A DNA stretch of 64,000 bases from Cyanobacteria bacterium P01_D01_bin.1 (GCA_039111275.1 JBCCOH010000003.1:27066-91065); one strand, 5' to 3'. Positions 66 through 62,383 are shown, counted from the stretch's first letter. A program made the numbers and translations. Notes: generated by a model from the sequence alone, not told the origin.

Positions 66-1331
66 ATGGCAAAATTTCTGCATATTTCTGATATTCATCT
101 CGGTTTTGATCGCTACGACAGCAAGCCGCGAACATTAGATTTTTTCTATGCGCTCAAGGATGTTTTAGAGAAGTATGCAGTTGCAGAGCAAGTCGATTTT
201 GTCATCATCGGTGGCGATTTGTTCGAGCATCGCAATATTAAGCCTGCAATCTTGAATCAGGCGCAGCTGTGCTTTCAGATTCTACGCGAAGCGAATATTC
301 CGGTGCTGGCGATTGAAGGCAATCACGACAATGCGCCGTATGGAACGAAGTCGAGCTGGCTGCGCTATCTGTCTGACTGGGGACTGCTGAAACTGTTGGA
401 ACCTGGTGATGTTAATTCGGGTGAGCCTTTTTATTCTCCTTGGGACGAGGATAGTCAGCGGGGTGGATATATTGACCTAGACTGCGGTGTGCGGGTGCTG
501 GGTTCTAGCTGGTATGGGGCAGCAGCGCCAAGGGCAATTGAGCAGATTGCGGCGGCAATGGGTGAGTTGCCGAAGGCTCAAGGGTCATCCATTTTGCTAT
601 TTCATCATGGGCTAGAAGGACAGATTGCTCGGTATTCCGGGGCTTTGCGCTATTCGGAGGTGCTGCCGCTGAAGAAAGCAGGAGTGGATTATCTAGCGCT
701 AGGTCATATTCACAAGAACTATTCGGAGGATGACTGGATTTTTAATCCAGGGTCGATCGAGGCGAATAATGTGGAGGAGAGCCAGTTTGAGCGGGGGGCG
801 TATTTGGTTGAGATCGATGAGAAAGGCACGATCGAGGCGGAGCTGAAGACGGATTATCAGCAGAGGCCGATTGTGCGGCTGCAACAAAAGCTGCGGAGTC
901 AAGATGCAATTGAATCGGTGGGGGAAGGCGCGATCGCCCTCATCCAATCAGCTATCAAATCCAAGAAAATCATCCCTGACCAGCAGCCAATCGTAGAGCT
1001 GCGTATCACTGGCACCGTCGGCTTTGATCGCTTAGAACTAGACATCCGTCAGCTCCAAAAGCAGCTCCAAGAGCTCTGTAACGCTTTGATATTTCTACTG
1101 CGATACGACGTCGAAGAAGACGGCTACAGCTCGCATATTTCAGAAGAAGCTAGTCGGCTAGAAGTAGAGCAGGAAGTTTTCACAGACCTGTTATCGGCCA
1201 ACGCACGCTACAAAAAGCAGGCTGAAAAGTTAGCGCACGGTTTGATCGATTTGAAAACTCGTCAGATGGATGGTGAGAGTGAGGAGAGTTTGTATGGGCT
1301 GGTGGAGACTATCCTGGATGTGGGGGACTAG
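66..1331 (+). CDS. sbcD: SbcD/Mre11-family DNA repair exonuclease (metallophosphoesterase)
   Basis: Phosphoesterase motifs DIHLG, GGDLFE, GNHD, HHG and GHIH in the expected order. Confidence 0.88.
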   Translation: MAKFLHISDIHLGFDRYDSKPRTLDFFYALKDVLEKYAVAEQVDFVIIGGDLFEHRNIKPAILNQAQLCFQILREANIPVLAIEGNHDNAPYGTKSSWLRYLSDWGLLKLLEPGDVNSGEPFYSPWDEDSQRGGYIDLDCGVRVLGSSWYGAAAPRAIEQIAAAMGELPKAQGSSILLFHHGLEGQIARYSGALRYSEVLPLKKAGVDYLALGHIHKNYSEDDWIFNPGSIEANNVEESQFERGAYLVEIDEKGTIEAELKTDYQQRPIVRLQQKLRSQDAIESVGEGAIALIQSAIKSKKIIPDQQPIVELRITGTVGFDRLELDIRQLQKQLQELCNALIFLLRYDVEEDGYSSHISEEASRLEVEQEVFTDLLSANARYKKQAEKLAHGLIDLKTRQMDGESEESLYGLVETILDVGD

Positions 1332-1446
1332 TCGAGGGTGACTTTCGTGGAGGAGAGAGGAAGTAGGGAATAGGGGGATAGGGGAGGTTATATCTTGTAG
1401 GGGGTTGCGTACCCTAGGGTTAGAGTCGCTATCTGCAAAGCCCTTT

Positions 1447-3819
1447 ATGACAACTTCTGCAATCGATCTCGAGAAGGTATTCAAGGCGGGTGTCGCTGCT
1501 TATAGAGAGGGTGACTACGAGCAGGCGATCGCACTACTCAATCGGCTAACTCGATTAGGCAGCCGAACCTATTGGCTAAAGGCAAGTATGGGTTTGGTGC
1601 AAGTTTATACAGCTCAGCAGCGATGGGCTGATGCTAGAGCGCAGTGCCAGGAGATTTTGCAAAAGACCTCTATGCCAGCACCCCAAACATGGGCAGAGAC
1701 GACTTTGCTCAGTATTGATCGTCAAGTGGCTGAAGCAACCGCCGCTGCTTCTGATAGCGCTACGAACAAAGATCAAAGTGGGTTTCGGCCTATTGAACCT
1801 GATTCGCAAGTCATCAGACCAAACTCTCAGGCAATAAAGAGATCTATCAGTCACTTTCGGACTGTTGATCCATTGTCAGAGCCTCGTAGTGTTTCAAAAG
1901 AGCCCAATGCCCTGGCGGCTCCTGATGAGATATCTGAATTGCAGGTGTCTATGTTTCACTACACCTATCTCAACGATGAGGCTGAACGAACAGCTATCGG
2001 AACCAAGTCTACGACTGAACCGGGTACTGCGAATGAAAGCTATCTATGGACCTATGGTGATCGCCTGCCACGGGGGCGATCGCTAGGACGAGCCAGACAA
2101 GGGGCAATAAGAATAGCTCAGCTAGGAAGTGCGATCGCCATCTACTTTCTTCTACGCCTTTTGATCCACCGCCTCGTTGCCCTCGTCAACAGCTGCCTAG
2201 CTTTCCTAGATAGAATCTTGCCGTTCTGGATCCATGCGCTACCTGGCGTCTTCAGAGACGTTACCTGGCCACTGTTGATAGTCTTACTCGCGATTACAAT
2301 TGCCTCTCCTTGGCTGTGGGATTTGATTCTTCGTCTTTTTGCCGATCGCCAGAAGTTCTCTATTAGTCAGCTACGTGCTCACTCCCCAGAATCTGCCAGC
2401 GTAATTAGTCGCTACTGCCGTGGTCGCCGATGGAGCTTACCCACTCTGTGGACGCTACCGACTGACATCCCGCTGCTTTTTTCCTACGGCTGGCTACCTC
2501 GCAATGCCAGATTAATAGTTTCAAAAGGACTGCTATCTGAACTAAGAGAAGATGAAATAGCTGCTCTATGTGCTTACGAGCTATCTCACTGGAGCAGCTG
2601 GCATTGGCCTTTGCTCTCCATTCACGGCTTGTTTCTTCAGATACTGCATCAAACCTATTGGCAGCTAGTCCTGTGGGGAAATATGCAAAAGCCACCACTG
2701 AAATGGACGGCGGGAATAGCGGCTAATTTTAGCTATGGGCTTTTTTGGCTAGTTCGGCTGCCAGGGCTATGGGTAGCTAGGGTGCGGACTTATTATGGCG
2801 ATCGCACCGCTACCGAAATCACCGGTAATCCCAATGCCTTGATTCGAGGACTCGCCAAACTTTCTTTTGGCCTAGCTGCAAGCGTAGAGCGACAGGGATA
2901 CACTCCAAATTGGGTTGAGAGTTTGGGTCTGCTAATGCCTGTGCAAGCCGACCTTGCTAGACAAAGCCTCTACGGTCATTGGCCTCTATCAGAACTATTT
3001 GCGTGGGATAGTAAGAACCCCCTGCGAAACTGGATGGATTTTTTGGATTCGCACCCACCCTTGGGCGATCGGCTGTGTGCGATCGCAGCCTATGCTAAAC
3101 ACTGGAAGCTTACACCCGAAATTGCATTCGCCACATCCTCTCGAATAAAAGGCGGCCTATCAAAGCAGAACTGGCAGCGGCTGCTCCGCCAGGGAACGCC
3201 ATACCTGGGGCTGGTGATAGGGGCAACAATTGGAACGGCGCTGTGGGGGATAGGGGCGATCGCCTCCCTGGTAGAGTGGCCTGTATTCGACTGGATGCAT
3301 AGAGATATTGGCCTTTTTCAGTGCTGCCTGCTGTTGGGTGTCGGTATTGGCAGCCTCTTGCGAATCAACTGTTTCTTTCCTGATTTATCTTTATCTATGT
3401 CACTTTCCGATGCGCTGCCCGAATGGGTTTGCCATCCTGGGCTTTTACCGGTGGACGGTCTGCCGACAAAGCTCACAGGGACTATTCTTGGCAGACCGGG
3501 CATCGCTAATTGGCTAGGCCAAGATTTGTATTTGCGATCGCCCTTTGGTCTTGTCAAGCTGCATTTCTTTTCCATCACCGGACCGTTAGGTAACCTGCTT
3601 AATCGATCAAAAACGCCTCGCATGCTTCAGGGCGAATCAGTCCAAGTCTTAGGATGGTTTCGCCGAGGGGCTCAGCCCTGGCTTGACGTTGACAAGATCC
3701 GACTTGGCAATGGCAGGTTGCTGACAGCAGGTCATCCGCTCTATTCGCTCATGATTGCTGCAGTAGCCACCGGACTGGGTTTGTGGCTATTGCTGAAAAG
3801 TACTGGCCACACAGGATGA
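1447..3819 (+). CDS. M48/HtpX-like membrane peptidase homolog with N-terminal TPR-like helices; zinc motif degenerate
   Basis: N-terminal TPR-like segment (AGVAAYREGDYEQAIALL), several TM segments, HtpX-like segments LIVSKGLL..L.EDEIAAL..YELSH, ITGNPNALIRGLAKL and SHPPLGDRL. ATG at 1447 preferred over TTG at 1405. Confidence 0.75.
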   Translation: MTTSAIDLEKVFKAGVAAYREGDYEQAIALLNRLTRLGSRTYWLKASMGLVQVYTAQQRWADARAQCQEILQKTSMPAPQTWAETTLLSIDRQVAEATAAASDSATNKDQSGFRPIEPDSQVIRPNSQAIKRSISHFRTVDPLSEPRSVSKEPNALAAPDEISELQVSMFHYTYLNDEAERTAIGTKSTTEPGTANESYLWTYGDRLPRGRSLGRARQGAIRIAQLGSAIAIYFLLRLLIHRLVALVNSCLAFLDRILPFWIHALPGVFRDVTWPLLIVLLAITIASPWLWDLILRLFADRQKFSISQLRAHSPESASVISRYCRGRRWSLPTLWTLPTDIPLLFSYGWLPRNARLIVSKGLLSELREDEIAALCAYELSHWSSWHWPLLSIHGLFLQILHQTYWQLVLWGNMQKPPLKWTAGIAANFSYGLFWLVRLPGLWVARVRTYYGDRTATEITGNPNALIRGLAKLSFGLAASVERQGYTPNWVESLGLLMPVQADLARQSLYGHWPLSELFAWDSKNPLRNWMDFLDSHPPLGDRLCAIAAYAKHWKLTPEIAFATSSRIKGGLSKQNWQRLLRQGTPYLGLVIGATIGTALWGIGAIASLVEWPVFDWMHRDIGLFQCCLLLGVGIGSLLRINCFFPDLSLSMSLSDALPEWVCHPGLLPVDGLPTKLTGTILGRPGIANWLGQDLYLRSPFGLVKLHFFSITGPLGNLLNRSKTPRMLQGESVQVLGWFRRGAQPWLDVDKIRLGNGRLLTAGHPLYSLMIAAVATGLGLWLLLKSTGHTG

Positions 3820-4000
3820 TGTACCTGAAAATTTGAGGATCAACAGCGAAAGCTACACCCAATCAACATGAAGAAATATTGCAGGCACTAGGCAAAGAGT
3901 GCTACATTCTTTCGCAAGAACTTGTTTTGTCTATCGTTTGGACAGCTTAGTAACCTGTAAGTTAACAATCTACAGAAAGTTTGCACATCTAGCGTTAGGC

Positions 4001-4062
4001 GCGGGTTCTCCTACTCTCAACACAGCATCTGGGCCAGTCGCTTCATAGCGGCTGGCCTTTTA
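4001..4062 (+). ncRNA. candidate small RNA (CU-rich segment plus intrinsic terminator)
   Basis: TAGCGT (-10-like) at 3990-3995, then GTTCTCCTACTCTCAA, then a 10-bp hairpin GGCCAGTCGC/GCGGCTGGCC (4032-4057) and a T-run. It lies about 200 nt from the upstream stop codon with no ORF to terminate. Confidence 0.4.
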
Positions 4063-4591
4063 TTGTTTGGCCTAATCACGCTCTGCTAGTTGCGTCGATC
4101 ACTTGGTTGAGCACCTGACATCGTGATATTTTAGGAATGGCAGAGTGAGAAACTAGCCGTGTAGCTTGCATGCTGGCTCTGCTGTTCAAAACAGTTATTT
4201 GAGAGCAAGAATAAGCAGCGAAATTTTACGCCGAGTCCAATCAAAAGCAAAACTTTGGCAAGTTCTGTCTGATCGTAACGGCGTTATCGCGTAGATGGAG
4301 GTAAGTTCCTCTGTGTGGCGCTCAAACGATTTATGTAGGCTGATCGCAGCGGCTAAGGCTTGTAAAAGTTTCTAAGCCTTTTTAGGAACTTTGAGTCGCC
4401 TGATAGAAGAAGTTGCCGCTCTTCAATAGAAAACGTCGCGTTCAAAACACGGTCTTCAAAGACACGGTGTTCAAAAGTTTTTCCATATTCTAGTGGGCTA
4501 GGCATTTTTTGTATGCCGCTTGTAGGCAAGCAACAAAGGCTTATTCCCTATGGGTTTTAAGAAAGTTAGAAAGAATTAGAGGTTATCTCAC

Positions 4592-5035
4592 ATGTCAGTT
4601 CGTTTGTACTTTGGCAATCTGCCACGGAATCTTGAGCGTGAAGAATTTGAGGCTATTTTCACTGAAGATAACGACAACCTAGTTTCGGTTAAGTTGATTT
4701 CAGATCGCAAAACTGGTAAGTGTCGAGGATTTGGCTTTGTGACTGCTAAAGACGACGAGACAGCAGACGCCCTAGTCGAGAAGTACAACGGCTTTACTCT
4801 ACAAGATGCCACCTTGAAGGTAGAGAAAGCGATGCCTCGAACTGAAAAAGAGACTGAGGCTCCTCGCAGTGAGAGTGGTGGCCAACGCCGCAGCAAGAAG
4901 AGCGGTGGCAAACGTGGTGGTAACAACGTTGTTGTCGCAGAAAGTCAAACTGCTGATGCTGGCCCAGATCCTCGATGGGCACAAGATCTCGCCAAGCTAA
5001 AAGAAATGTTGGCAGCCCAGACAACTGCCTCTTAG
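4592..5035 (+). CDS. RRM-type RNA-binding protein (cyanobacterial Rbp3-like class)
   Basis: RNP2 LYFGNL, RNP1 RGFGFV, and a C-terminal PDPRWAQDLAKLKEML tail typical of the longer Rbp class. Confidence 0.88.
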   Translation: MSVRLYFGNLPRNLEREEFEAIFTEDNDNLVSVKLISDRKTGKCRGFGFVTAKDDETADALVEKYNGFTLQDATLKVEKAMPRTEKETEAPRSESGGQRRSKKSGGKRGGNNVVVAESQTADAGPDPRWAQDLAKLKEMLAAQTTAS

Positions 5036-5083
5036 TAATCGCGTCGTAATCACGTTACAGGTAGATTTATCTGCTGGGGTTAG

Positions 5084-5142
5084 ACCATCACTAGAAAAAC
5101 AGCCTTACGATACGAGATCTGTTTTTCTAGTGATGGTTTTTT
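5084..5142. terminator. hairpin between convergent rbp and crtB
   Basis: Perfect 19-bp inverted repeat ACCATCACTAGAAAAACAG (5084-5102) / CTGTTTTTCTAGTGATGGT (5119-5137), followed by a T-run. Confidence 0.8.
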
Positions 5143-5181
5143 ATTGCTACAGCAGTTTCTAGCGGTGATACTGGATGCTAT

Positions 5182-6117
5182 CTACGAAACCTGCGCTCTG
5201 ACAAGTGCCTGCGGCAAATAGAGAAACTTACGCGCTTTGGGGACGTACGCCCGGCGGTTGAAGACATCGTAATCGTTCTCGACAATGACATCTAGAATCT
5301 TTCTGTATAGCATTAGTGCTGTCCAAACTGGCCAACGTGCATCTGGATGCAACCGACTGATTCCAGCTTCTGCTTCTCGGTAGTACTTAAGTGCTCTTTG
5401 GATTTGGAACCGCATCAGTGCCCGCCAGCGGTCGTCTATCACGCCTTTCATCAGCTCTTCTTCTGTGTAGTCAAATAGCTCTAGATCCTCTAGCGGCAGA
5501 TATATTCGTCCTCTTCTAGCGTCTTCACCTACGTCTCTAAGGATGTTGGTGAGCTGGTTCGCAATTCCCAACGAGATCGCCTCAGGAATCGGAGGTGTTG
5601 CTGGGTTCGAACGCATCCAAGGAGAGGCGTTGACCTCAGTATCCATTCCCATCACTACTGTCGACATGAGCCCGACCGTGCCTGCTACCCGATAGCAGTA
5701 CAGCTTGAGTTCTTCAAAAGTTTTGTAGCGAGAGCGGTGCAGGTCCATTCTCTGCCCAGATATCATGTCTCTAAACGGCTGGATGTCTAGCTCGTAGCGC
5801 TCTAGCGTATCGACCATCGCTACGTCTAAGTTATCTTTTGGGCTACCAGAGAACAGATTTTCTAGCGTAGATTCCCAATGGTCTAGCGTACTTTCTGTTG
5901 TGAACTTTGCTTGGGGGCCGTCTACTAATTCGTCGGTTCGACGACACCAGACGTAAATCGCCCAAATCGCTCTCCGCTTGGCTTCTGGCATGAGTAGCGT
6001 GCCCATGTAGAACGTCTTGGAGCACTCTGCCGTAATTTGACGACACTGTTCGTAGGACTCTTGGATCGATACAAACTTGGGCGGAAGGGTCGTTGAAGGA
6101 TGGGTCAGTTGCAGCAT
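5182..6117 (-). CDS. crtB: phytoene synthase
   Basis: CSKTFY, RRTDELVD, YCYRVAGTVG and NQLTNILRDVGED..RGRIYLP motifs. ATG at 6117 (MLQL) preferred over 6186. Confidence 0.95.
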   Translation of the reverse strand: MLQLTHPSTTLPPKFVSIQESYEQCRQITAECSKTFYMGTLLMPEAKRRAIWAIYVWCRRTDELVDGPQAKFTTESTLDHWESTLENLFSGSPKDNLDVAMVDTLERYELDIQPFRDMISGQRMDLHRSRYKTFEELKLYCYRVAGTVGLMSTVVMGMDTEVNASPWMRSNPATPPIPEAISLGIANQLTNILRDVGEDARRGRIYLPLEDLELFDYTEEELMKGVIDDRWRALMRFQIQRALKYYREAEAGISRLHPDARWPVWTALMLYRKILDVIVENDYDVFNRRAYVPKARKFLYLPQALVRAQVS

Positions 6118-6505
6118 CAATGCCTCAAACTGGAAAAATGAACAATAGTCGTCGGACGAGTCAGCCAAAGCGCCCTGTGATCGCATACAACCAGCAGAAA
6201 ATCGTCGTTTCCTTGCGTGGCTAAGCGATGCGTAATTTCCTTATTATATGTTTCAAAGCGTTACATTTTGAGGCGGACCTCAATTTCTCTCGTATCAAGC
6301 GCGACTTCAGCTACCGCCAGATAACCGCCAGATAAAAGACAAACTAACCCTTCATCCTTTGCGCCCTGGGCAGTTTGCTTGGCCATCTATCCAATCTATC
6401 CATTACCTTTTATTCTCTTTTCTCATAGAATTTCTTCGAGATTTGTTGGTTGTCTAGCGTTTGTAGCGAGCTATCATAAAAGCCTTTCAAAGCAGCTAAA
6501 GGAGA

Positions 6506-7792
6506 TTGATGAGACAGTCTAACGTGGACTTTTTGCAGCAGAGCGACCCAGAGCTGGCCGCCATTATTGATAGAGAACTCAATCGACAGCAAACCCATCT
6601 AGAGCTGATCGCTAGTGAGAACTTTACCTCTCCAGCAGTGATGGCAGCCCAAGGCTCTGTACTGACCAATAAGTACGCCGAAGGACTGCCGAACAAGCGC
6701 TACTACGGCGGCTGCGAATTTGTTGACCAGGCAGAGCATCTGGCGATTGAGCGGGTGAAGGCACTATTTGGCGCGGCTCATGCAAATGTGCAGCCTCACT
6801 CTGGGGCGCAGGCAAACTTCGCGGTGTTCCTTGCGTTGCTAAAGCCAGGCGATACAATTCTGGGAATGGATTTATCTCATGGTGGCCATCTGACTCATGG
6901 TTCGCCAGTGAACTACTCGGGCAAGTGGTTTAACGTTGTGCAGTACGGAGTGAACCGCGAAAGCGAGCAGCTCGATTTTGACGAAATTCGTCAGATAGCA
7001 GTCGAGCACCAGCCTAAGCTGATTATCTGTGGGTATTCGGCGTATCCTCGAACGATTCATTTTGAGAAGTTTCGGGCGATCGCAGACGAAGTCGGTGCAT
7101 ATCTGATGGCAGATATTGCTCATATTGCTGGATTAGTGGCAACGGGTCATCATCCTAATCCCTTACCTCACTGTGATGTAGTCACCACGACGACTCACAA
7201 AACCCTGCGTGGTCCTCGGGGCGGGTTGATCATGACTCGTGACGCTGAGCTGGGTAAAAAGTTTGACAAGGCCGTTTTCCCAGGTAGCCAGGGTGGACCG
7301 CTAGAGCATATCGTCGCGGCCAAGGCAGTTGCTTTCGGTGAGGCGCTAAAGCCCGAATTTGAAACTTACTGCGCACAGGTAATCAAGAACGCCCAGGCGT
7401 TAGCCGCTCAACTTCAAGAGAGAGGAATTAAGGTCGTCTCCGATGGCACAGACAACCACCTAGTGCTAGTAGATCTTCGCTCTATTGGGATGACAGGCAA
7501 GATTGCAGATGCTCTGGTGAGTGAAGTTCACATCACTGCTAATAAAAATACGGTGCCTTTTGATCCAGAATCTCCTTTTGTTACTAGTGGTCTGCGTCTA
7601 GGCACACCAGCGATGACCACCAGAGGAATGGGTGAAACGGAATTTATGGAGATTGCCAATATCATTGCCGATCGGTTGCTGAGTCCAGAAGATAGTGGTG
7701 TGGAATCAGACTGTAAGCAGCGGGTAGGTGCTTTGTGTGATCGCTTCCCGCTGTATCCGCATCTGCGATCGCCAGAGCCAGCACTTGTATAG
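6506..7792 (+). CDS. glyA: serine hydroxymethyltransferase
   Basis: [22 protein letters not shown] and the PLP-lysine motif [13 protein letters not shown]. Confidence 0.98.
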
Positions 7793-7823
7793 GCGCTGTA
7801 AACGCTGCTAGCCATCACTATCG

Positions 7824-7860
7824 AAACCCCAGGCATCTTCTAAGATACCTGGGGTTTTGT
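7824..7860 (+). terminator. intrinsic terminator after glyA
   Basis: AAACCCCAGG...CCTGGGGTTT stem followed by TTTGT, about 30 nt after the glyA stop. Confidence 0.75.
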
Positions 7861-8183
7861 ATGGGAAAATCTACGCAGTTACCGGAAATGAGCACTCGTC
7901 AGCAGATTCAACGAAGATATCTTGCAGCGCCAACTTTACACTGTCTAGACAAATCGCTAGACAAGGCGAATTTGATGTTATTCATGCTTTAGATAGTAGG
8001 CAAAGGCTATACTGTCGCCGAACGGTGATAAATTTACAGAAATTGATGTTATTTGTGCTTAATTTTGCTGCGCGCAACTGCTCCGTCAGTCCGGCTGTCA
8101 GCTTTTTCTCAGCGCGTATAGTCTCAAGCCTGTATTTCTAAAGCATTTATTTCTACATTGCCCACCCTATCTCACCCTTTCCG

Positions 8184-9242: not shown

Positions 9243-9270
9243 GTGTCGGCATTAGGCTCAGTAGGGATGC

Positions 9271-13302: not shown

Positions 13303-13321
13303 CAGCCAGAAGTAAGACATC

Positions 13322-54108: not shown

Positions 54109-54188
54109 AGATTCGTGACGCTCTACTTTTAGACGTTCTTCTAGACGTTCTTTGAAAGGATTACGCAAGCTAACCTGCTATCCAAACT

Positions 54189-54968: not shown

Positions 54969-55076
54969 TATCCTTTTTCAATTTCCAAGACTATCTTCAA
55001 TCCTGCCGCATGTTGTGACTAAGCACACAGAACAGCTAGGACAGTTTGTAAGAGTGGGCAAACAAGAACAGCGCCG

Positions 55077-55667
55077 CTAGCCAACGTCTTTTAAGAAGTT
55101 TCTAAGTAGATCTTTGCCCGATTCTGTCAGAACGCTTTCCGGATGAAACTGCACCCCCTGAATGTGAGGGTAGTCGCGGTGGCGAACACCCATGATAGTG
55201 CCGTCTTCTACCCAAGCCGTGACTTCTAGAACATCGGGGCAGGTGGCTGGGTCAATCACGAGACTATGGTAGCGAGTTGCAATCAGCGGATCTGATAATC
55301 CCGCAAAGACGCCCTTATTGTTGTGCCGAACCGGAGAGGTTTTGCCGTGCATCAGCTCCGTTGCACCGATCACATCGCCGCCGTAGACCTGGCCAATACT
55401 CTGGTGACCTAAGCACACACCTAGGATCGGTAGCTGGGGTCCGAGTTGCTCAATGATTTGCAATGAAATGCCCGCATCGTTTGGCGTGCCCGGGCCGGGA
55501 GAGATGACAATGCCATCTGGCTGCTTGGCGACAATTTCTTCTAGGGTGATTTGGTCATTGCGAAAAACTTCTATCTCGTTAGCAACTGCCAAAGTGTGGC
55601 CTAGCTCACCTAGGTACTGGACCAGGTTGTAGGTAAAGCTGTCGTAGTTGTCGATAACGAGAATCAT
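55077..55667 (-). CDS. trpG: anthranilate synthase / ADC synthase component II (glutamine amidotransferase)
   Basis: [23 protein letters not shown] and QFHPES. ATG at 55667. Confidence 0.93.
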
Positions 55668-55683
55668 GGCAGCAAACTTCAAA

Positions 55684-56328
55684 CTAGATCGACAGTATAG
55701 AAGAAATGAAAGGACTTAGAATAGCCCAAAGCGGCGGGGCAAAAATCAGCATAGCGATCAGCAGTGCCACGATTGCTGCCATCAAAACGGCGCCAGCAGC
55801 GCAGTCTTTGGCGATTTTGGCAAGGTCGTGATAGGCCTGTCCGACGGTTAGATCAACCAGCGATTCTAGGGCTGTATTGAGGATTTCCATCACCAAGACA
55901 GCACCGATCGTCAGGCAGATGATGGCAATTTCTAGGTTGCTGACTTTGAAGAGCCAGCAGAGGACCATGGCGAGAGAGCCAACGGCTGTGTGAATTCTAA
56001 AGTTGCGCTGAGTTTGGAACGCGTAGCTGATACCTGCCCAGGCGTATCGAAAGCTGGAGAAGAGATTGGGGGCTACCTGCCAAGATTGCGATCGCTTTTC
56101 TTCTACTAGCTCTTCTTCTAGCTCTACTGCTTCTAGCTGATCCTCTTTATCTACTTGCGCTATCTCTTTTTCTACCGTTGGCGCTAGCTTGAGACCGTCT
56201 TTCTCCTCGAGACTTGGCTTGCTGTCTACTTCTACGCTGCCTATCTGCGCCTCTATTTTCGTACCGGCCTTCGGGCTAGGTGGCAATACCTCTGCTGAGC
56301 GAGAGACCTGACTATCACTTGAGAACAT
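55684..56328 (-). CDS. dgkA: prokaryotic diacylglycerol kinase with acidic N-terminal extension
   Basis: [25 protein letters not shown] and [12 protein letters not shown]. Confidence 0.92.
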
Positions 56329-56508
56329 AGTTCGCTAGGCACTTAGCTTTGTATGACGATGGTTGTAGCTTTTGAGTAGGCTGCAAGCTAACTGCAAATG
56401 GTCATAGTCTCTGACCTGTAGCTACTGGCCTGTAGTTGCTGCTCTGTAGTTATAGAACTTAATCAATACCTACATCAAGATGCTTTGGCCTGGGTTAGAC
56501 AATCGCGC

Positions 56509-57021
56509 TCAAGATATCAGGTTCAGCAGTTGGGTTTGCTGACTAAGCATTCGTGTCAAGCTGCTCTGATCTGGATGATCCCAGCCTAGTAGGTGCAGCA
56601 GCCCGTGGGCCGAGAGCCAGGCCAGTTCTTTTTCTAGAGAATGCTGACTCTCTAGTGCCTGACGGGCTGCGGTCTCGGCAGAGATGATTATGTCGCCTAG
56701 GTAGACAGGCTGCGTTTGATAAATGCTGTCTGCTTGAGGTAGCTCTGTTTCTAGCGCGGCGAAAGAGAGCACGTCGGTGGGTTTATTCTGTTGACGAAAG
56801 TCGGCGTTGAGCTGTTGAATTTCGGCGTCGGTGGTCAAGCGTAAGCTGAGCTCGTAGGCGTTAAGTGGTGAGAGCTGCGGATTTAGTTCGGTGAGCCAGG
56901 TTTGAAACCAAGTTTCGTATTGGGCGATCGCAACTCCAGTTTTTGCGATCACCCCAGACAAAGCACTACCGTCTACAAAAGTTTCGACCTGCACAGCCTG
57001 AGCCGTCTTGCCTGCTGCCAT
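56509..57021 (-). CDS. ybeY: rRNA maturation endoribonuclease
   Basis: LNADFR..NKPTDVLSF, LGDIIIS and HGLLHLLGWDH. Confidence 0.96.
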   Translation of the reverse strand: MAAGKTAQAVQVETFVDGSALSGVIAKTGVAIAQYETWFQTWLTELNPQLSPLNAYELSLRLTTDAEIQQLNADFRQQNKPTDVLSFAALETELPQADSIYQTQPVYLGDIIISAETAARQALESQHSLEKELAWLSAHGLLHLLGWDHPDQSSLTRMLSQQTQLLNLIS

Positions 57022-57072
57022 CTATCTACTCTTTGCCATCTACTGTCTTTACCCTCTACTGTCTAGTCGTCC

Positions 57073-57279
57073 CTAGCGCGTTAGGTAAGCCAGCCCAATT
57101 AAAAGTCCTAATAATCCTACAAAAGAAAGAAAGAAGTGATAGAGCGACTTGCCTCCTTTTTTGACCATGTTGCGCATCGCTAGCTTGACAAAACTAGGCG
57201 CTGGCTCGTTAAGTGAGGCGGAAGACTGGCTAGCGGATGGCTCTGAAACAGTCGCTGTGGCTGATTTGTCTGTACTCAT
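57073..57279 (-). CDS. DUF3285-type small membrane protein
   Basis: PSFVKLAMRNMV.KG..SL.HF.L...GLLG.LIGLAYLTR, located between prfB and ybeY. Confidence 0.88.
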   Translation of the reverse strand: MSTDKSATATVSEPSASQSSASLNEPAPSFVKLAMRNMVKKGGKSLYHFFLSFVGLLGLLIGLAYLTR

Positions 57280-57370
57280 GATGCTGATTGCTGGATTTAT
57301 CCTCCAGCTTAATAGTTTTTGGGCGGCTTCGATTGGAACGGCAAGCTATTAAGGACTGTCAGAAAGTGCG

Positions 57371-58496
57371 CTAAACGACGCTCTCTTCTAGCATCTGGTT
57401 TTCTTGCCGCAAATACGCCTGGATGAAGGCTTCTAGATCGCCGTTCATCACATCGTCGACAGCGGTGGTCTCTATGCTAGTGCGCAGATCTTTGACCATC
57501 TGGTAAGGGTGAAAGACGTAGTTGCGAATCTGATTGCCCCAGGCCGCTTCTACCATGTCACCGCGAATGTCAGCGATCGCCTGCGTCCGCTGCTCTTGGG
57601 CGATGACAAGTAGCTTAGAGGTAAGCAGGGCCATCGCTTTTTCCTTGTTTTGGAGCTGCGATCGCTCCTGTGTACAGCGCACCGAAATTCCCGTCGGCAA
57701 ATGCGTAATCCGCACTGCCGTTTCCACCTTGTTCACGTTCTGGCCACCTGCCCCGCCAGAGCGCGACGTCTTCACCTCTAGATCCTTATCAGGAATATCT
57801 AGCTCTACTTTTTCGTTGAGAATTGGCATCACTTCAACGCCCGCAAAGCTCGTCTGCCGCTTACCGTTGGCATTAAAAGGTGAAATCCTCACCAGTCTGT
57901 GAGTGCCTTTCTCTCCTTTCAGGTAGCCATAGGCATAGCGACCATGGATCTCCATCGTGGCAGACTTAAGTCCGGCCTCATCACCATCTGACTTCTCAAT
58001 CAGCTTGAAAGTATATCCATTTTGCTCGCTCCATCGGGTGTACATCCGCAGCAGCATCTCTGCCCAGTCTTGAGCATCGGTGCCACCCGCCCCTGCATTA
58101 ATAGATAGGACCGCGCCCTCTTTGTCATAGGGCGCAGAGAGCAACTGCTGAAGCTCCCACTGATCTAGCTCTTTGCTAAGTCTTGTAACGGTGGATTCGG
58201 CCTCTGAAAGTAGTGATTCGTCCTGTTCAAGCTCTAGCAGTTCTAGAATCGCAGCGGAGTCTCCTAGGCTAGTTGACCAGCCCTCTACCTGGTCGAGGTT
58301 TGACTTGTAGTCGTTGAGTTCTTGAAGATGCTTTTGGGCGCTCTCTTGCTCGTCCCAAAAGTCTGGCTGAGCGGATAGCTGCTCTAGGTCTTGAATCTTC
58401 GCGGTCAGCGCAGGGATGTCAAAGGTATTCCTGAGCTTTGCCCAGGCGATCAGAGAGCGTTTCTAACTCTCGCTTCAGCGTAACGGTATCAAACAT
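57371..58496 (-). CDS. prfB: peptide chain release factor 2, programmed +1 frameshift after codon 25
   Basis: ATG at 58496, [32 protein letters not shown] at 58424-58418. The +1 frame from 58420 (DIPAL...) is open to 57371 and contains SPF and GGQ. Confidence 0.96.
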
Positions 58497-58586
58497 GTTT
58501 ACGAGGTCAATAGAGTCGAGGTCTTATTCTTGCTCTTTGCCTCTATGAAAATACGACAGGAGCAAGAATAAGACGGTCTCGGTAGT

Positions 58587-59315
58587 TTAGTCTCTACCGT
58601 TGATAGCGATCAACAGTCGAAGGATAAAGACGAACAGGTTGATATATGTCAGGTACATCGACAGCGCTGCGGGTATCGCCTGGTCATCGCTATATGTGCG
58701 CGGTAGAACGAAAAAGTCAACAACCGCCGCGCCGACAAATAGTAAAACGCCAATAGCCGAGATAGCAATCTCTAGGAAGTTAGGTGCATAGACCCCAAAG
58801 AAGCTAAAGACAAACTGACCGACGATCACAACTAGCAAAGCCATGATGCCAAGTTGAACTGTCTTGGTTAGCGCCATGCCGTCCTCTTCGGATAGGTTGG
58901 AGCCAATCGGACGAGCGGCAATAAAGGTGAGTCCGCAGGCTAACGCTGCAAATCCCACCCCCTGAATGCCAACGCCGCTACTCTGTAGGGCTACGGAGAC
59001 TAACCCACTGAGGGTATAGCCAGAGAGCAGGCTATAGGTGGCAAGCAGCGGCAGTGCGACGCCATTATTGCCTTTCATCGCGACGCTGCGAGCGACGAAG
59101 AATAAAGCTAGCTCAGCGATAATAGCGACAAAGAAAGTCGGCATGAACAAACCAGGGTTTGTTCTAAGCACATTGAGTCCGCCGAAAGTTCCGGCAGCTG
59201 TCAAGATTAGACCACCGCCAACGTAAGGCAGTGCGTTCGCGATCACGTTAGGGCCGACTATCGATTGGCTTTTGGCCGAACGGATAGCCTCGCGGAAGTT
59301 GCTGGTGTTGCTCAT
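58587..59315 (-). CDS. Bax inhibitor-1/YccA family membrane protein
   Basis: About seven TM helices and C-terminal AALSMYLTYINLF..ILRLL. Confidence 0.9.
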   Translation of the reverse strand: MSNTSNFREAIRSAKSQSIVGPNVIANALPYVGGGLILTAAGTFGGLNVLRTNPGLFMPTFFVAIIAELALFFVARSVAMKGNNGVALPLLATYSLLSGYTLSGLVSVALQSSGVGIQGVGFAALACGLTFIAARPIGSNLSEEDGMALTKTVQLGIMALLVVIVGQFVFSFFGVYAPNFLEIAISAIGVLLFVGAAVVDFFVLPRTYSDDQAIPAALSMYLTYINLFVFILRLLIAINGRD

Positions 59316-59785
59316 AAGGAGGTTTTCAGTTCCTACATATCTACATATAAGAGTGTACTGAATTCCTCAAAATCTGACGATTACGGATTCCTTCCTAACA
59401 GTTTGAAAGGCTTTTTATTGAACGGCATTTGGTAATCACCACAGCTAGGAGCTGTTCAAAAAAAGGCACTATTTCCGTATAAATCCGGGGTAGAAAATGT
59501 GCGTTTCTAAAGACATTGGGAAGATGTCCAGGATGTTGTACACGAAGTGAAACATTAGCGTAATTATTCGTAGGTCTTTTTGCGAAAGCCTGAACCTGTT
59601 GTCCATCAATGAACTGAGCATTTCTGAAGAGCCTACTCATCGAGGGTTTTGCGTGTATCTGCCTACGGTTTAATTTGACGGTTTACACGACTACCGTGTT
59701 TCAACGATGGTTTGAAATGAGCCGCTTCCCGAGAATGAATTTAATTCACGCAATCTGCTTCGACGCAGTTATTACTGCATTTAAT

Positions 59786-60577
59786 ATGGCTTCTTCTAAA
59801 TCTGCACAACTTCGATCTCGCGGTATGGAATTGCTTATGCAATACAAAGTGGATCGTTCGGTTAAGCTTCGCAATCAGTTGGTCAGACTTAATGCTGGCC
59901 TAGTTCGTAAAATTGCTCATAGGGTCAGCCATCAGTGCGCTGAACCCTATGAAGATCTTGAGCAAATTGGCTATATTGGCTTGATTCGTTCGATCGAGCG
60001 CTTCGATCCAGGTCAAGGCTGCGCGTTCAGTTCCTTTGCGGTGCCCTATATTCGCGGTGAAATGCTTCACTTCTTGCGCGATCGCGGCACTACAGTCAAA
60101 ATTCCCCGTCGCTGGCAAGATCTGCAAAAAGAGGGTCAAAAGCGTCAGGCAGACCTGATTCGCCAGTACGGGCGTCAGCCGTCTGATATCGAGATGGCTG
60201 CAGCGTTAGAAGTGTCCGTTCAAGAGTGGCGTCAGGTCAAGCTCGCAAACAAGAACCGGATGCCGCTGAGCCTAGATGCCACAGTTTGTCACCAGATTGA
60301 CTCGAGTATCACCCTCGGCGATACGCTGCCCGACGTTCACTATCAACTGTTGCAGATATTAGAAGAGGACCGCCAGCAAATCCAGAGAGCAATGGCACAG
60401 CTAGAAGAGAAGACTCGCTCTGCTATTGAGTTTGTCTTCTTTAAGGGACTATCTCGAAAGGAAGTGGCCGAGCGCATTGGCGTCAGCCCGATGACGGTGA
60501 CCCGTCGCATTCAGCGGGGCGTAGAGCAGATGATTGCCTATCTACAGCCACAGCAGGATTTGCAGACTGACCCTTAG
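59786..60577 (+). CDS. sigF: group 3 RNA polymerase sigma factor SigF
   Basis: RNQLVRLNAGLVRKIAHR, DLEQIGYIGLI..IERFDP.QG..FSSFA.PYIRGE, and region 4 SRKEVAERIGVSPMTVTR. ATG at 59786 preferred over 59675. Confidence 0.9.
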   Translation: MASSKSAQLRSRGMELLMQYKVDRSVKLRNQLVRLNAGLVRKIAHRVSHQCAEPYEDLEQIGYIGLIRSIERFDPGQGCAFSSFAVPYIRGEMLHFLRDRGTTVKIPRRWQDLQKEGQKRQADLIRQYGRQPSDIEMAAALEVSVQEWRQVKLANKNRMPLSLDATVCHQIDSSITLGDTLPDVHYQLLQILEEDRQQIQRAMAQLEEKTRSAIEFVFFKGLSRKEVAERIGVSPMTVTRRIQRGVEQMIAYLQPQQDLQTDP

Positions 60578-60684
60578 ACTGGAAAAAGTGTTGGTGGGCA
60601 CACGTTATCTCCTGCGCTTGCCTGCGTTTATATGACTACCCGTCCTTGCTAACCGTATAGAAGTTGATCTCCTAAGTAAACAAT

Positions 60685-60722
60685 ATCGATGTAGTCAGTA
60701 ACTGGCTACATCGATTTTTTTG
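60685..60722 (+). terminator. intrinsic terminator after sigF
   Basis: 14-bp stem ATCGATGTAGTCAG / CTGGCTACATCGAT (one G-U pair), 3-nt loop, T-run. Confidence 0.85.
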
Positions 60723-60778
60723 TTGCTAGGAGCACAAAGCTAGACGAGCACATATTAAGCTTTGAAGGTGAGCGGCAG

Positions 60779-62383
60779 ATGGCTAAGGAGTTGGCTATGG
60801 GCGGAGTCGAGGCTGTATTAGGATCGCATCAGGAAGAACGGAATTCGAGTGATGGTGTGGAAGGTCGCGATCACTTCCACGAATTACAGACTCAGCTAGC
60901 CGATCGTTGGCAGTCGATTGACGCGTTCGACAGGCGACCTCGGCAGATTCTGGTCGTGCCTTCACTGAGCCTGGACCAGGCCGAACTTAGGAAGGTAAAA
61001 GGCGTTCACTACTATGAGGAGCGGCTGCTGTTTGCGCTGATCCGCCTGCGCAACCCCGAGACTCGGCTGATCTATGTGACTTCTCAGCCTTTGCATCCGA
61101 GTATTGTCGATTATTATCTGGAGCTGCTGCCGGGTATCCCCAGTTCGCATGCGCGCGATCGCCTCGACCTCTTCTCTACCTACGATTCCTCTCTACGACC
61201 GCTCACCCAGAAGATCCTGGATCGCCCTCGTCTGATTCGCCGTATTAAGGACAAGCTGCACCACGACCAGGCGTATATGACTTGCTACAACTCCACTGAG
61301 TGTGAGCGGGAACTGGCGCTAAGGCTGGATTTACCGCTGCTGGCAGTCGATCCAGATTTGCTCTACTGGGGAACGAAAGGGGGCAGTCGTCAGATTTTCA
61401 CTGAGTGTGGAATTCCGTTGCCAGATGGCAGTGAGCTGACCCATAGCGTGAGTACGCTGGCAGAAGATGCAGCGGCGCTTTGGGAACGTCACCCTGAGCT
61501 AGAACGGATTGTGATCAAGCTAAATGAAGGATTCTCAGGGGAGGGAAATGCGCTGTTTGGTTTGACAGATCTAGCGGCGGTGGCTCCTGGCAAGGCAAGT
61601 CATGAGGAGCGGGCGGCGGCGATTGAGGCGGCTTGGCCTAGCTTGGGGTTTCAGTGTGATAGCGAGGACTGGCCTTCTTTTGCTCAGAAGATTAGGGAGC
61701 TGGGTGCGATCGCCGAAGCATTCATCGAAGGCGAAGAAAAATATTCACCCAGTGTCCAAGGCCGGGTCACTCCAAAAGGCGAAGTCGAAGTTCTCTCCAC
61801 GCACGATCAGGTACTTGGTGGCCCTGATGGTCAGATCTTCCTCGGCTGCACGTTCCCTGCCGACGACGCCTACCGGATGGCGCTTCAGGAGATGGGCCGC
61901 AAAGTCGGTGAAAACCTAGCCGCAAAAGGCGCGCTCGAACGCTACAGCGTGGACTTCATCGCTGTTCATCAGCCTGACAACAAAATGCAACCCTGGGACA
62001 TCCAAGCAATTGAAATTAACCTACGCAAAGGCGGCACGACTCACCCATTCATGGCGCTAAAGCTATTGACTAACGGCACCTACGACTCATCCGACGGCAA
62101 ATTCTACACTAAAAACGGCCAAGCCAAGTACTACCGAGCCTCAGACAACTTACAAAAAGACGCCTACAAAGGTCTTTTGCCCAATGACCTGATGGATATC
62201 ATCATGGGCGAGCAGCTACACTTCAGCTCGATTGACGGAGAAGGCGTCGTCTTTCACCTGATGGGTTGCCTTAGCGAACATGGAAAGCTAGGACTAACCT
62301 GCATTGGCAATACCCCGCAGGTCGCTGGCGAAATCTATGAACAGGTAGTCGCCGCTATTGACAGAGCGACCCAAGAGATATGA
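60779..62383 (+). CDS. PGM1-related ATP-grasp peptide-ligase-like protein
   Basis: Pre-ATP-grasp region (HYYEERLL, WGTKGGSRQIF), ATP-grasp motifs VIKLNEGFSGEGN, EAFIEG, SPSVQG, YSVDFI and IEINLRKGGTTHP. Confidence 0.8.
   Translation: MAKELAMGGVEAVLGSHQEERNSSDGVEGRDHFHELQTQLADRWQSIDAFDRRPRQILVVPSLSLDQAELRKVKGVHYYEERLLFALIRLRNPETRLIYVTSQPLHPSIVDYYLELLPGIPSSHARDRLDLFSTYDSSLRPLTQKILDRPRLIRRIKDKLHHDQAYMTCYNSTECERELALRLDLPLLAVDPDLLYWGTKGGSRQIFTECGIPLPDGSELTHSVSTLAEDAAALWERHPELERIVIKLNEGFSGEGNALFGLTDLAAVAPGKASHEERAAAIEAAWPSLGFQCDSEDWPSFAQKIRELGAIAEAFIEGEEKYSPSVQGRVTPKGEVEVLSTHDQVLGGPDGQIFLGCTFPADDAYRMALQEMGRKVGENLAAKGALERYSVDFIAVHQPDNKMQPWDIQAIEINLRKGGTTHPFMALKLLTNGTYDSSDGKFYTKNGQAKYYRASDNLQKDAYKGLLPNDLMDIIMGEQLHFSSIDGEGVVFHLMGCLSEHGKLGLTCIGNTPQVAGEIYEQVVAAIDRATQEI

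Follow-up and report, generated by a model that had tools for sequence, protein, structure and literature searches.

The window analysed here is a stretch of 64,000 nt, and among its genes are those for an SbcD-like metallophosphoesterase, a GHKL ATPase, a UvrD-like helicase and a PGM1-like ATP-grasp protein. It also carries 60 copies, against 1.6 expected, of GCGATCGC, the abundant cyanobacterial palindrome known as HIP1 (Table 1). Genome-wide this octamer is the most frequent of all, with 4,768 copies in 5.33 Mb (0.89 per kb, a spacing of ~1.1 kb), and the copies that lie inside genes occupy all frames. In comparison with relatives at 77% nucleotide identity, HIP1 is kept at 261 of 317 and at 234 of 298 sites (79-82%), where ~12% would be expected. 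A mobile or repeated element carrying HIP1 was rejected, the flanks being dissimilar between copies; no repeat family is involved, because all 4,743 of the 128-nt site contexts are unique, and four upstream 30-mers recur. One C5-methyltransferase gene is present in this genome (C31:19934-21010). It is of the DmtC type, has full-length orthologues, 49-55% identical, in nine other cyanobacteria, and its CGATCG specificity is assigned by orthology alone.

On each strand, GC skew is positive 5' of HIP1 and negative 3' of it, both at the 60 sites of the window and at 4,522 sites genome-wide. The size of this flip can be expressed as D, the value of (G-C) upstream minus (G-C) downstream in 100-nt flanks on each side of the site. 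Mean D in the window is +10.2, compared with 0.03 (sd 1.38, maximum 5.6) in 5,000 control sets of random positions, and D is above zero at 78.6% of HIP1 sites genome-wide versus 48% of random positions. At 11-45 nt from the sites of the window, skew is +0.139 upstream and -0.103 downstream. Across the whole window (1..64000) this results in a sawtooth, with GC skew negative right after one HIP1 and positive right before the next. The initial annotation had described such a change from a G-rich 5' flank to a C-rich 3' flank from hand counts, and the description is confirmed here; the counts themselves reproduce in 40-nt flanks at sites 930, 2131, 15250 and 16890, and also at 11701, which had been given as a weak case. 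A switch from G/T-ending to C/A-ending codons within the PGM1-like open reading frame had also been described. It is seen at site 61706, where the ratio of G+T to C+A at third codon positions is 31 : 3 in the preceding 100 nt and 8 : 26 in the following 100 nt, and the imbalance lasts 300-600 nt. Site 16890, in a minus-strand gene, has the same sign as sites in plus-strand genes.

Table 1. HIP1 sites of the 64,000-nt window, with D in 100-nt flanks and, for selected sites, G:C counts in the 40 nt before and after the site.
Feature	Position	D	G:C, 40 nt	Gene or remark
HIP1	930..937	+26	17:6 then 2:14	SbcD-like metallophosphoesterase gene (66-1328, +; Pfam Metallophos)
HIP1	1525..1532	0		
HIP1	2076..2083	+11		
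HIP1	2131..2138	+24	12:7 then 4:15	
HIP1	2798..2805	+19		
HIP1	3079..3086	+7		
HIP1	3256..3263	0		
HIP1	3534..3541	+14		
HIP1	7076..7083	+3		
HIP1	7765..7772	+14		
HIP1	10168..10175	+8		
HIP1	10556..10563	+17		
HIP1	11064..11071	+6		
HIP1	11701..11708	+10	17:7 then 11:10	weak case of the initial annotation
HIP1	13397..13404	-7		
HIP1	13520..13527	+18		
HIP1	15250..15257	+28	17:4 then 8:13	GHKL-ATPase gene (14554-16014, +)
HIP1	16890..16897	+35	13:7 then 2:16	UvrD-like helicase gene (15996-18344, minus)
HIP1	17250..17257	+23		
HIP1	18160..18167	+25		
HIP1	20035..20042	+4		
HIP1	20962..20969	+3		
HIP1	21121..21128	+4		
HIP1	23681..23688	-19		next site 85 nt away, flanks overlap
HIP1	23766..23773	+1		
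HIP1	25208..25215	+4		
HIP1	25659..25666	+3		
HIP1	27897..27904	-3		
HIP1	28530..28537	+19		
HIP1	29023..29030	+25		
HIP1	29587..29594	+5		
HIP1	30922..30929	+29		
HIP1	31798..31805	-5		
HIP1	32805..32812	0		
HIP1	33859..33866	+2		
HIP1	34540..34547	0		
HIP1	36566..36573	-5		
HIP1	37258..37265	+18		
HIP1	37684..37691	-9		
HIP1	39178..39185	+8		
HIP1	40817..40824	+5		
HIP1	40948..40955	+5		
HIP1	41791..41798	+12		
HIP1	42933..42940	+28		
HIP1	44034..44041	+21		
HIP1	45557..45564	+5		
HIP1	49931..49938	-14		next site 120 nt away, flanks overlap
HIP1	50051..50058	+22		
HIP1	50827..50834	+16		
HIP1	53281..53288	+13		
HIP1	53558..53565	+8		
HIP1	53636..53643	-7		
HIP1	56088..56095	+28		
HIP1	56924..56931	+39		
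HIP1	57573..57580	-3		
HIP1	57658..57665	+16		
HIP1	60078..60085	+3		
HIP1	61155..61162	+12		PGM1-like ATP-grasp gene (60779-62380, +; Pfam PGM1_C, ATP-grasp)
HIP1	61706..61713	+20		PGM1-like ATP-grasp gene (same gene)
HIP1	63806..63813	+19		

Published work on HIP1 has reported extensions of the motif by 1-2 nt, its conservation, a periodicity in its spacing, an influence on transformation and associations with methyltransferases (Elhai 2015, PMC4390886; Xu et al. 2018, PMC5861425; Kamoku and Nielsen 2024, bioRxiv 10.1101/2024.09.10.611283; Rodriguez-Cruz et al. 2026, PMC13756078). Flank skew at HIP1 is not reported in any of these papers, in which the word "skew" is missing or used otherwise, and no description of a G-to-C flip at HIP1 was found in the searchable literature. 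The flip is apparently an undescribed imprint.

The signal decays smoothly with distance. Genome-wide (n=4,522), skew upstream/downstream of HIP1 is +0.40/-0.40 at 1-3 nt, +0.16/-0.15 at 21-30 nt, +0.08/-0.08 at 51-75 nt, +0.05/-0.05 at 101-150 nt, +0.026/-0.026 at 201-300 nt and about +0.017/-0.014 at 401-600 nt. After deconvolution, the ln-odds of G:C amount to +0.97 at 11-20 nt, 0.39 at 81-100 nt, 0.15 at 281-400 nt and 0.055 at 801-1100 nt, and are 0 beyond 2.3 kb, so that the effect of HIP1 reaches ~2 kb. Both flanks are shifted equally, by ~±5 G-C per 100 nt each, and the per-site variance does not exceed that of random positions. Where another HIP1 lies in between, 70-80% of the effect of the more distant site is screened off: a second HIP1 past the nearest adds just 0.03-0.09, whereas a nearest site equally far away adds 0.19-0.27, and at a fixed distance from HIP1 the bias rises with the length of the inter-site gap. 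Neither a polar k-mer nor a helical periodicity was found in the flanks of HIP1, for which a per-base model has an R2 of 0.91-0.95.

The effect is specific to the full motif. CGATCG is the sole one of the 64 palindromic hexamers to have it, and GCGATCGC is the sole palindromic octamer among those with at least about 100 copies. In this genome, no flank skew accompanies CGATCG without the outer G/C and no flip accompanies GATC outside HIP1; such flank skew is likewise missing at GGATCC, GGTACC, GGCGCC and GGGCCC, all with G-rich left halves. Genes on the plus strand, genes on the minus strand and intergenic DNA all have the same antisymmetric profile, and at four-fold sites HIP1 distance accounts for 14,046 units of deviance versus 932 for gene strand. 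The independence from gene strand claimed at the outset is therefore borne out by equal profiles in genes of either orientation, and transcription-associated asymmetry was rejected because the sign does not track gene orientation. Four outcomes had been set beforehand as speaking against the flip; all were looked for and none was seen. Averaged over 4,522 sites, the skew is antisymmetric and centred on HIP1; it extends to ~2 kb and is not limited to a few flanking bases; with control octamers, CGATCG lacking the flanking G/C and random positions run alongside, it is confined to GCGATCGC; and it is kept at synonymous positions, being strongest at four-fold sites and present at intergenic ones.

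The flip also depends on the presence and age of HIP1. Sites common to relatives have D of ~12, and sites private to this genome D of 5.4-9.0, where the relative without HIP1 has D of 1.1-3.3; positions here aligned to HIP1 private to a relative have D of 5.6-7.9. The flip tracks lineage-specific HIP1 presence and is larger at conserved sites. It is present in several cyanobacterial families and lacking in some HIP1-rich lineages: Synechococcus elongatus PCC 11801 has no flip, although its genome carries 2.7 HIP1 per kb. DmtC presence is no predictor of the flip: the DmtC-type CGATCG m5C methyltransferase is missing from genomes G047, G017 and G038, all of which have it. It had been suggested that the flip could explain the irregular genome-scale GC skew of cyanobacteria. 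This looks unlikely, because an antisymmetric profile should sum to ~0 between sites.

On the strand of the 5' flank, bases are ordered G > A≈T > C. At four-fold sites 11-30 nt from HIP1, G goes from 0.27 to 0.40 and C from 0.26 to 0.17 while A and T stay level (sense genes: A 0.221, T 0.215; antisense genes: A 0.211, T 0.213). Two-fold sites show a rise of about 1.6-fold in the odds of G:A and of about 1.45-1.75-fold in those of T:C, together with a gain of purines, and C is depleted near HIP1 in every site class. The initial annotation had also claimed an excess of T over A in the 5' flank; this part of the claim holds over all positions (TA skew ~+0.04) and at two-fold sites, and fails at four-fold sites (~0). 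Divergence at four-fold sites, measured against two relatives, does not change with distance to shared HIP1 and shows no rise near the sites (excess identity 0.29-0.31 near HIP1, 0.30-0.32 far), at a divergence near saturation (four-fold identity ~0.49) where a 10-15% rate change near HIP1 could escape detection.

These data divide the explanation that was first offered, namely nicking and resection at HIP1 followed by C-to-T deamination. The 5'-to-3' geometry is supported, since removal of the other strand from HIP1 predicts the gain of G and loss of C found in the flank 5' of HIP1 on each strand. Deamination as the main driver is not supported: a single-strand deamination skew (G>C plus T>A) was rejected, because T is not raised at four-fold sites as C falls, and synonymous divergence is not raised near HIP1.

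Taken from base composition, the pattern suggests that the flip is the imprint of a one-directional DNA repair or recombination step beginning at HIP1. We give an even chance to a fuller form of this reading, in which HIP1 would anchor a recurrent strand-polar DNA transaction with 5'-to-3' strand replacement and template-favouring mismatch resolution. A nick or end at HIP1 would start the process and, on each strand, the stretch leading 5'-to-3' away from HIP1 would be excised or replaced, in heavy-tailed tracts that would reach ~2 kb and usually end before the next HIP1. The complementary strand, its 3' end pointing at HIP1, would act as template, so that mismatches in the tract, arising by replication error or when a genome copy pairs in heteroduplex with another copy or with DNA from outside, would go to the template strand's base. 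This preference would be the source of the bias. Because G-containing mispairs (G.T, G.A, G.G) would be made and recognised far more often than C.A, C.T and C.C, the favoured strand would gain G from A, T and C and lose C to T, A and G, with A and T level and the overall substitution rate nearly constant. Repetition over evolutionary time would then produce the G-rich 5' flank, the C-rich 3' flank and the sawtooth. Polymerases make G:T errors most often and C:C errors least often, and G:G is corrected best and C:C barely (PMC3167615), so the observed base hierarchy is what a preferential retention of the mispairs of one strand would give, with the proviso that these mispair frequencies come from E. 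coli and general polymerase studies and may not hold for cyanobacteria. The flank bias could be either mutational or fixation-type in kind.

A purely mutational route, with a break or nick at HIP1, 5'-to-3' resection and deamination or other damage on the exposed 3' tail, is unlikely. It would give the observed polarity, its lengths are similar to the 1-2 kb reach, C is depleted in every site class, and the 2-kb flanks of human hotspots show C>N and A>N, including C>G and A>G, on the single-stranded tail (PMC7615360). However, the loss of C at four-fold sites near HIP1 is made up by G, with T staying level, synonymous divergence near the sites is not raised, and free resection would not predict the 70-80% screening by an intervening HIP1. 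To our knowledge, C>G is rare in bacteria, which are without Rev1.

A shade more doubtful is selection or molecular drive, according to which a protein acting at HIP1 would benefit from much G and little C on the strand that has its 3' end at HIP1. RecA or DprA loading, DNA uptake and a Chi-like reader are candidates, and spread would occur by preferential transmission via transformation or conversion between genome copies. The order G > A≈T > C, with equal odds shifts in the two-fold and four-fold classes, fits such a fixation-type bias, and HIP1 is conserved (79-82% at 77% nucleotide identity). Methylated HIP1 increases transformation and recombination in PCC 7002, where it was compared to Chi, and HIP1 abundance correlates with transfer machinery. 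The smooth span of the effect over 1-2 kb, with neither motif nor helical periodicity, would nevertheless leave a tiny per-base contribution to binding; the naturally competent S. elongatus has dense HIP1 and no flip, and screening by the next HIP1 is not predicted.

It is very improbable that HIP1 is a preferred point of fork convergence, pausing or Okazaki-fragment boundary and the flip a miniature terminus skew switch. Replication GC skew also shows G > C on one strand and a sharp sign change at a defined point, the sign at HIP1 (G-rich to C-rich) is of the terminus type, and the HIP1 spacing of ~1.1 kb is close to the size of Okazaki fragments. Against this, both flanks are shifted equally and the variance is not above that of random positions, so that the mixture of single-flank shifts expected from a fixed fork direction is not seen, and the T>A component normal for replication-type skew is missing at four-fold sites. 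The scale is ~1 kb, not megabases, with thousands of switches that are all of the + to - (terminus) type, and we know of no mechanism by which fork events would be positioned at a palindrome once per kilobase. An actual origin/terminus switch was rejected, as it expects one or two switches per replicon, domains of hundreds of kb and a dependence on fork direction, whereas both flanks shift equally at HIP1.

Reverse causality, in which HIP1 arises or survives at a pre-existing switch or the flip is a by-product of codon or amino-acid context, has hardly any probability left and is largely refuted: G exceeds C in the motif's left half (GCGA) and C exceeds G in its right half (TCGC), and positions aligned to relative-only HIP1 keep a sizeable D, but the four palindromes with G-rich left halves have no flank skew, D is lower in the relative's orthologous flanks without HIP1 than here or at shared sites, the signal is independent of gene strand, strongest at four-fold sites and found in intergenic DNA, and S. 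elongatus has dense HIP1 without it.

A strand-polar transaction at HIP1 would share features with several known systems. In the MutH/GATC system of E. coli, a short methylated palindrome also serves as the entry nick (putative at HIP1), the nearest site is used, and excision extends over 1-2 kb, similar to the reach at HIP1; unlike in E. coli, MutH is missing here and non-HIP1 GATC has no flip in this genome. Excision in E. coli mismatch repair runs both ways, and we know of no flank skew associated with it. Chi sites and DNA uptake sequences, to both of which HIP1 has been likened, are short words that occur in excess and are recognised by the machinery of recombination or uptake, but they are asymmetric and orientation-biased whereas HIP1 is a palindrome; no kb-scale flank skew is known to us around them. 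Human meiotic break hotspots have strand-asymmetric mutagenesis in their flanks (Hinch et al. 2023, PMC7615360), with a mirror-image asymmetry about the site, a reach of 1-2 kb, and C lost and G gained on the strand with its 3' end towards the site, as at HIP1. They belong to eukaryotic meiosis, with PRDM9 and SPO11 and with a mutagenesis ascribed to single-strand damage plus translesion synthesis (PMC7615360), and they are read as mutations, whereas the HIP1 flip is read as equilibrium composition, with divergence not raised and T not accumulating.

Elhai (2015, PMC4390886) independently proposed a G-m5C-directed mismatch repair in which a MutH analogue nicks at HIP1 with ~1 kb reach, HIP1 density saturating near one per kb. 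Excision from a HIP1 nick fits both the reach found here, at most about 2 kb, and the predominance of the nearest site. That hypothesis predicts no footprint or polarity, whereas the flip requires essentially one-way excision, and the flip also occurs in genomes without the DmtC m5C methyltransferase. A search for repair genes returned no HIP1-specific nuclease. MutH (PF02976) is missing in 7/7 genomes searched, and has been reported missing from all cyanobacteria (PMC5101192); Vsr (PF03852) is missing in 16/16 cyanobacterial genomes including this one, and the control for each search matches E. coli. For this genome, the absence of MutH speaks against methyl-directed mismatch repair as in E. 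coli, and that of Vsr against very-short-patch repair at m5C sites. It encodes MutL (with a MutL_C domain) and two RecJ 5'-3' exonucleases, both of which occur also in genomes without the flip; recC is reportedly restricted to marine picocyanobacteria (PMC5101192).

The function of HIP1 has been an open question for 30 years, and the flip is an imprint that bears on it. Tentatively, and with the chances somewhat against it, HIP1 may be the entry signal of an undescribed cyanobacterial system for nick-directed, one-way (5'-to-3') strand replacement and mismatch correction. If this is true, iterated palindromes of other phyla for which skewed flanks have been noted may function likewise, and HIP1 would be a counterpart in function of MutH/GATC, with a putative HIP1-reading nickase, and the sawtooth would be its evolutionary footprint.

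The genome that contains the window is a 5.33-Mb draft in 228 contigs with 50.6% G+C, and its nearest public relatives are Phormidesmis-like cyanobacterial MAGs. HIP1 (highly iterated palindrome 1), a motif known since the mid-1990s, reaches a density of about one per gene in most cyanobacteria. Its sequence, GCGATCGC, is found 60 times in the window, compared with 1.6 copies expected, and 4,768 times genome-wide (0.89 per kb), and is by far the most frequent octamer of the genome. Since several other GC-rich palindromes are strongly avoided genome-wide (observed/expected: AGGCCT 0.09, CCCGGG 0.18, CCGCGG 0.19, GCCGGC 0.19, CTCGAG 0.27), restriction systems, present or past, are suggested. Base composition flips at HIP1, each strand being rich in G and poor in C 5' of the site and the reverse 3' of it. 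This was first proposed from hand counts at single sites, which are closely reproduced here, and the flip is real. In the PGM1-like ORF, for example, third codon positions hold 31 G+T and 3 C+A in the 100 nt before the site at 61706, and 8 and 26 after it. With D denoting the (G-C) count of the upstream 100-nt flank less that of the downstream one, the mean over the 60 window sites is +10.2, compared with a mean of 0.03 (sd 1.38, maximum 5.6) for 5,000 random position sets. Averaged around 4,522 genomic HIP1 sites, GC skew is antisymmetric, with values of ±0.40 at 1-3 nt, ±0.16 at 21-30, ±0.08 at 51-75, ±0.05 at 101-150, ±0.026 at 201-300 and about ±0.015 at 401-600 nt, and from one HIP1 to the next it follows a sawtooth, drawn out further the longer the gap. 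D is positive at 78.6% of HIP1 sites versus 48% of random positions; the entire site distribution is shifted, so the flip is not confined to a subset.

Among 64 palindromic hexamers, a flip is seen only at the HIP1 core CGATCG (+0.081/-0.077 at 11-100 nt), with flank skew at the remaining ones within about ±0.025, and among palindromic octamers present in about 100 copies or more it is seen at HIP1 only (+0.102/-0.097). CGATCG without the outer G and C has no flip (+0.007/-0.007, n=683), nor is there flank skew at GATC outside HIP1. A passive composition effect of the G-rich left half-site is ruled out by the control palindromes, and a repeat family as the source is ruled out because every site context is unique. 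An effect limited to one flank per site is also rejected, since both flanks shift equally; the variance of the flank shifts at HIP1 is at most that at random positions. The flank asymmetry of 2- to 4-mers is explained per base (R2 0.91-0.95; 0.33 log2 units per net G and 0.09 per net T), no Chi-like or KOPS-like word emerged among these k-mers, and a search for helical periodicity in the flanks found only the 3-nt codon period. Genome-wide, the base directly preceding HIP1 (-1) is T in 36% of cases, G in 36%, A in 13% and C in 16%, mirrored at +1; the preference here is for keto over amino bases, whereas more distant positions are biased in G/C only.

The profile is identical in plus-strand genes, minus-strand genes and intergenic DNA, in agreement with the proposed independence of gene orientation, and the flip peaks at synonymous positions. 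At four-fold degenerate sites of a gene set made by crude calls of our own (4,357 genes, 86% coding), the antisymmetric skew is about 0.59 at 1-10 nt, 0.41 at 11-30, 0.29 at 31-60, 0.20 at 61-100, 0.14 at 101-200, 0.085 at 201-400 and 0.06 at 401-800 nt. If each flank is read on the strand that places it 5' of HIP1, four-fold sites gain G (about 0.27 to 0.40) and lose C (about 0.26 to 0.17), with A and T level, while at two-fold sites A changes to G (odds up about 1.6-fold) and C to T (odds up 1.45-1.75-fold). The hierarchy on this strand is G > A≈T > C. The shift has the same sign at the first two codon positions, where it reaches 15-20% of its four-fold strength and thus slightly affects proteins. 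For the choice of G or C at four-fold sites, distance to HIP1 accounts for 15 times as much deviance as gene orientation, and the HIP1 flip is the main determinant of synonymous G-versus-C choice in this genome.

To estimate the reach of a single site, the choice between G and C was modelled by logistic regression over 407,497 four-fold sites. The contribution per HIP1, in ln-odds, is +0.97 at 11-20 nt, 0.72 at 31-45, 0.39 at 81-100, 0.27 at 141-200, 0.15 at 281-400, about 0.09 at 401-800, 0.055 at 801-1100 nt and 0.03 at 1.1-2.3 kb, and zero beyond; the decay is heavy-tailed and not exponential. A model using the nearest site on each side beats an additive model in fit. A second HIP1 beyond the nearest adds 0.03-0.09, versus 0.19-0.27 for a nearest site at equal distance, and this holds where the effect is well below saturation too; at a fixed distance the bias rises with the length of the inter-HIP1 gap.

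Cause and consequence can be separated by comparison with relatives, for which two same-genus genomes, each represented by 400 kb, were aligned to this genome (about 77% identity). HIP1 positions, such as 930, 16890 and 61706 in the window, are conserved at 82% and 79% in the two genomes, versus about 12% expected for an octamer. D is about 12 at sites common to this genome and a relative; at sites exclusive to this genome it is 5.4 and 9.0, and in the relative, without HIP1 there, 1.1 and 3.3. These values indicate that the skew follows the site and grows with its age, rather than preceding it. Four-fold divergence is flat with distance to shared HIP1 sites, near-saturation limiting precision to roughly ±10%, which argues that the process at HIP1 is not strongly mutagenic. 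The closest genomes, at 72-77% identity, are too distant for polarised substitutions, and an exact-protein look-up for further contigs of this population found no others. The variants GTGATCGC and GCGATCAC occur 544 times each genome-wide, with 284 and 248 copies, respectively, lying more than 400 nt from any HIP1, against 71-83 copies of other transition variants, GCAATCGC and GCGATTGC among them. The first two are the expected deamination products of 5-methylcytosine and outnumber other one-off transitions 3-4 times, an excess that fits such deamination at HIP1 position 2; the flank flip is kept nearly in full at both.

The initial annotation had proposed nicking or breakage at HIP1 followed by 5'-to-3' resection, with deamination of the strand thus exposed as the chemical cause. 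The observation is confirmed and this geometry is supported, but the chemical cause is not. The changing strand is the one whose 3' end points at HIP1, as would follow if the opposite strand were removed 5'-to-3' starting at the site. Deamination of the exposed single strand would, however, raise T at unconstrained sites, and T is level at four-fold sites; it would raise divergence, and none is raised near HIP1; and it would ignore intervening HIP1, which do matter. Re-copying of the removed strand, with mismatches in the tract settled in favour of the template strand, fits the pattern better, as judged entirely from composition. The favoured strand would gain G from A, T and C and lose C to T, A and G, and such polar resolution would leave A and T balanced and the total rate about unchanged. 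Similar G:A and T:C shifts and a larger G:C shift are predicted, matching the observed odds shifts of about 1.6, 1.5 and 2.3, respectively. Polymerases err most often by G:T and least often by C:C, and in mismatch correction G:G is handled best and C:C is essentially uncorrected (PMC3167615). The mismatches could be replication errors, or heteroduplexes between genome copies or from transformation. A nearest-site rule and a reach of 1-2 kb also characterize nick-directed excision in E. coli, and both match Elhai's 2015 proposal (PMC4390886), in which HIP1 serves as the nick signal of mismatch repair.

Beyond this genome, samples of 100-500 kb per genome were compared. The two same-genus genomes show a flip just as strong, and several further families one of about half the strength. 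In G020, a genome from another family (38% GC, 279 sites), it is 0.087 at 11-100 nt, versus a control sd of 0.0115. Synechococcus elongatus PCC 11801 (G053; L001-L005, L115-L122) has the densest HIP1 among the sampled genomes, 2.7 per kb, and no flip at 720 sites (+0.010/+0.003 at 11-50 nt, se 0.008). In family f19, three high-GC genomes (G043, G046 and G055; L047-L048, L123-L130; about 0.7 HIP1 per kb; 70% G+C in G043, sampled for composition) have no flip past the first 2 nt at 116 sites, with a strong G/C preference at the two motif-adjoining bases only (GGCGATCGCC type). Because the flip is absent from HIP1-rich S. elongatus and from f19, HIP1 abundance and the flank process are separable. 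The distal flip is not significant on the plasmids alpha of Nostoc PCC 7120 (65 sites), pAQ7 of PCC 7002 (67) and pSYSM of PCC 6803 (32), for which counts are small and which may be young.

Several enzymes were considered as determinants of the flip. The flip-bearing genomes G029, G005, G008 and G020 each encode a methyltransferase of the DmtC type (CGATCG m5C), and neither a DmtC-like C5-methyltransferase nor a PF01555 N4/N6 methyltransferase is found in S. elongatus PCC 11801. DmtC is rejected as the determinant because three further genomes (G047, G017, G038) have the flip without it, and on this evidence the flip is not attributable to CGATCG methylation. According to Elhai, S. elongatus is without a CGATCG methyltransferase and its DNA is cut by PvuI. 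The two DmtC-like genes in the table may be pseudogenes or interrupted genes. An N4/N6 methyltransferase of about 320 aa, 63-67% identical among four distant flip-bearing cyanobacteria, occurs in G047, G017, G038 and this genome, is absent from S. elongatus PCC 11801 and may target GGCC; it is rejected since its distribution is not complementary to that of DmtC. Vsr and MutH, absent from every genome tested, and MutL and RecJ, present in every one, offer no contrast. For the pair of ATPase and helicase genes in the window, no link with HIP1 was found.

Coordinates of the window and of the genes discussed
Feature	Genome or contig	Coordinates	Strand	Remark
Window	this genome, C3	27066-91065		
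GHKL ATPase gene, stand-alone (HATPase_c_3)	window	14554-16014	+	converges with the helicase gene, 19-nt overlap
UvrD-like helicase gene	window	15996-18344	-	
DmtC-like gene	genome G002, C39	21068-22408		apparently split in two
DmtC-like gene	genome G041, C1	1642940-1644265		in-frame TAA
N4/N6 methyltransferase	genome G000, C132	2910-3824		further sequences L156, L157, L162

No mention of a flank skew was found in the available text of the main HIP1 papers or by full-text searching, and the flip appears to be undescribed. In print, the closest parallel comes from human meiotic break hotspots, around which mutagenesis within about 2 kb is strand-asymmetric in mirror image, C>N changes falling on the single-stranded tail (PMC7615360). 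The flip is the first quantitative footprint of events at HIP1, and it tells in which direction they run (away from the site, 5' to 3' on each strand), how far they reach (about 2 kb at most), that the nearest site dominates and which base signature they leave. HIP1 abundance and the flank process, formerly conflated, are now told apart by S. elongatus, whose contrast with flip-bearing genomes provides a natural basis for a comparative-genomic search for the responsible enzyme. The model of HIP1-directed mismatch repair or recombination, speculative as it is, leads to specific experiments and makes the function of HIP1 directly testable. In this genome, the flip shapes codon usage and, slightly, proteins.
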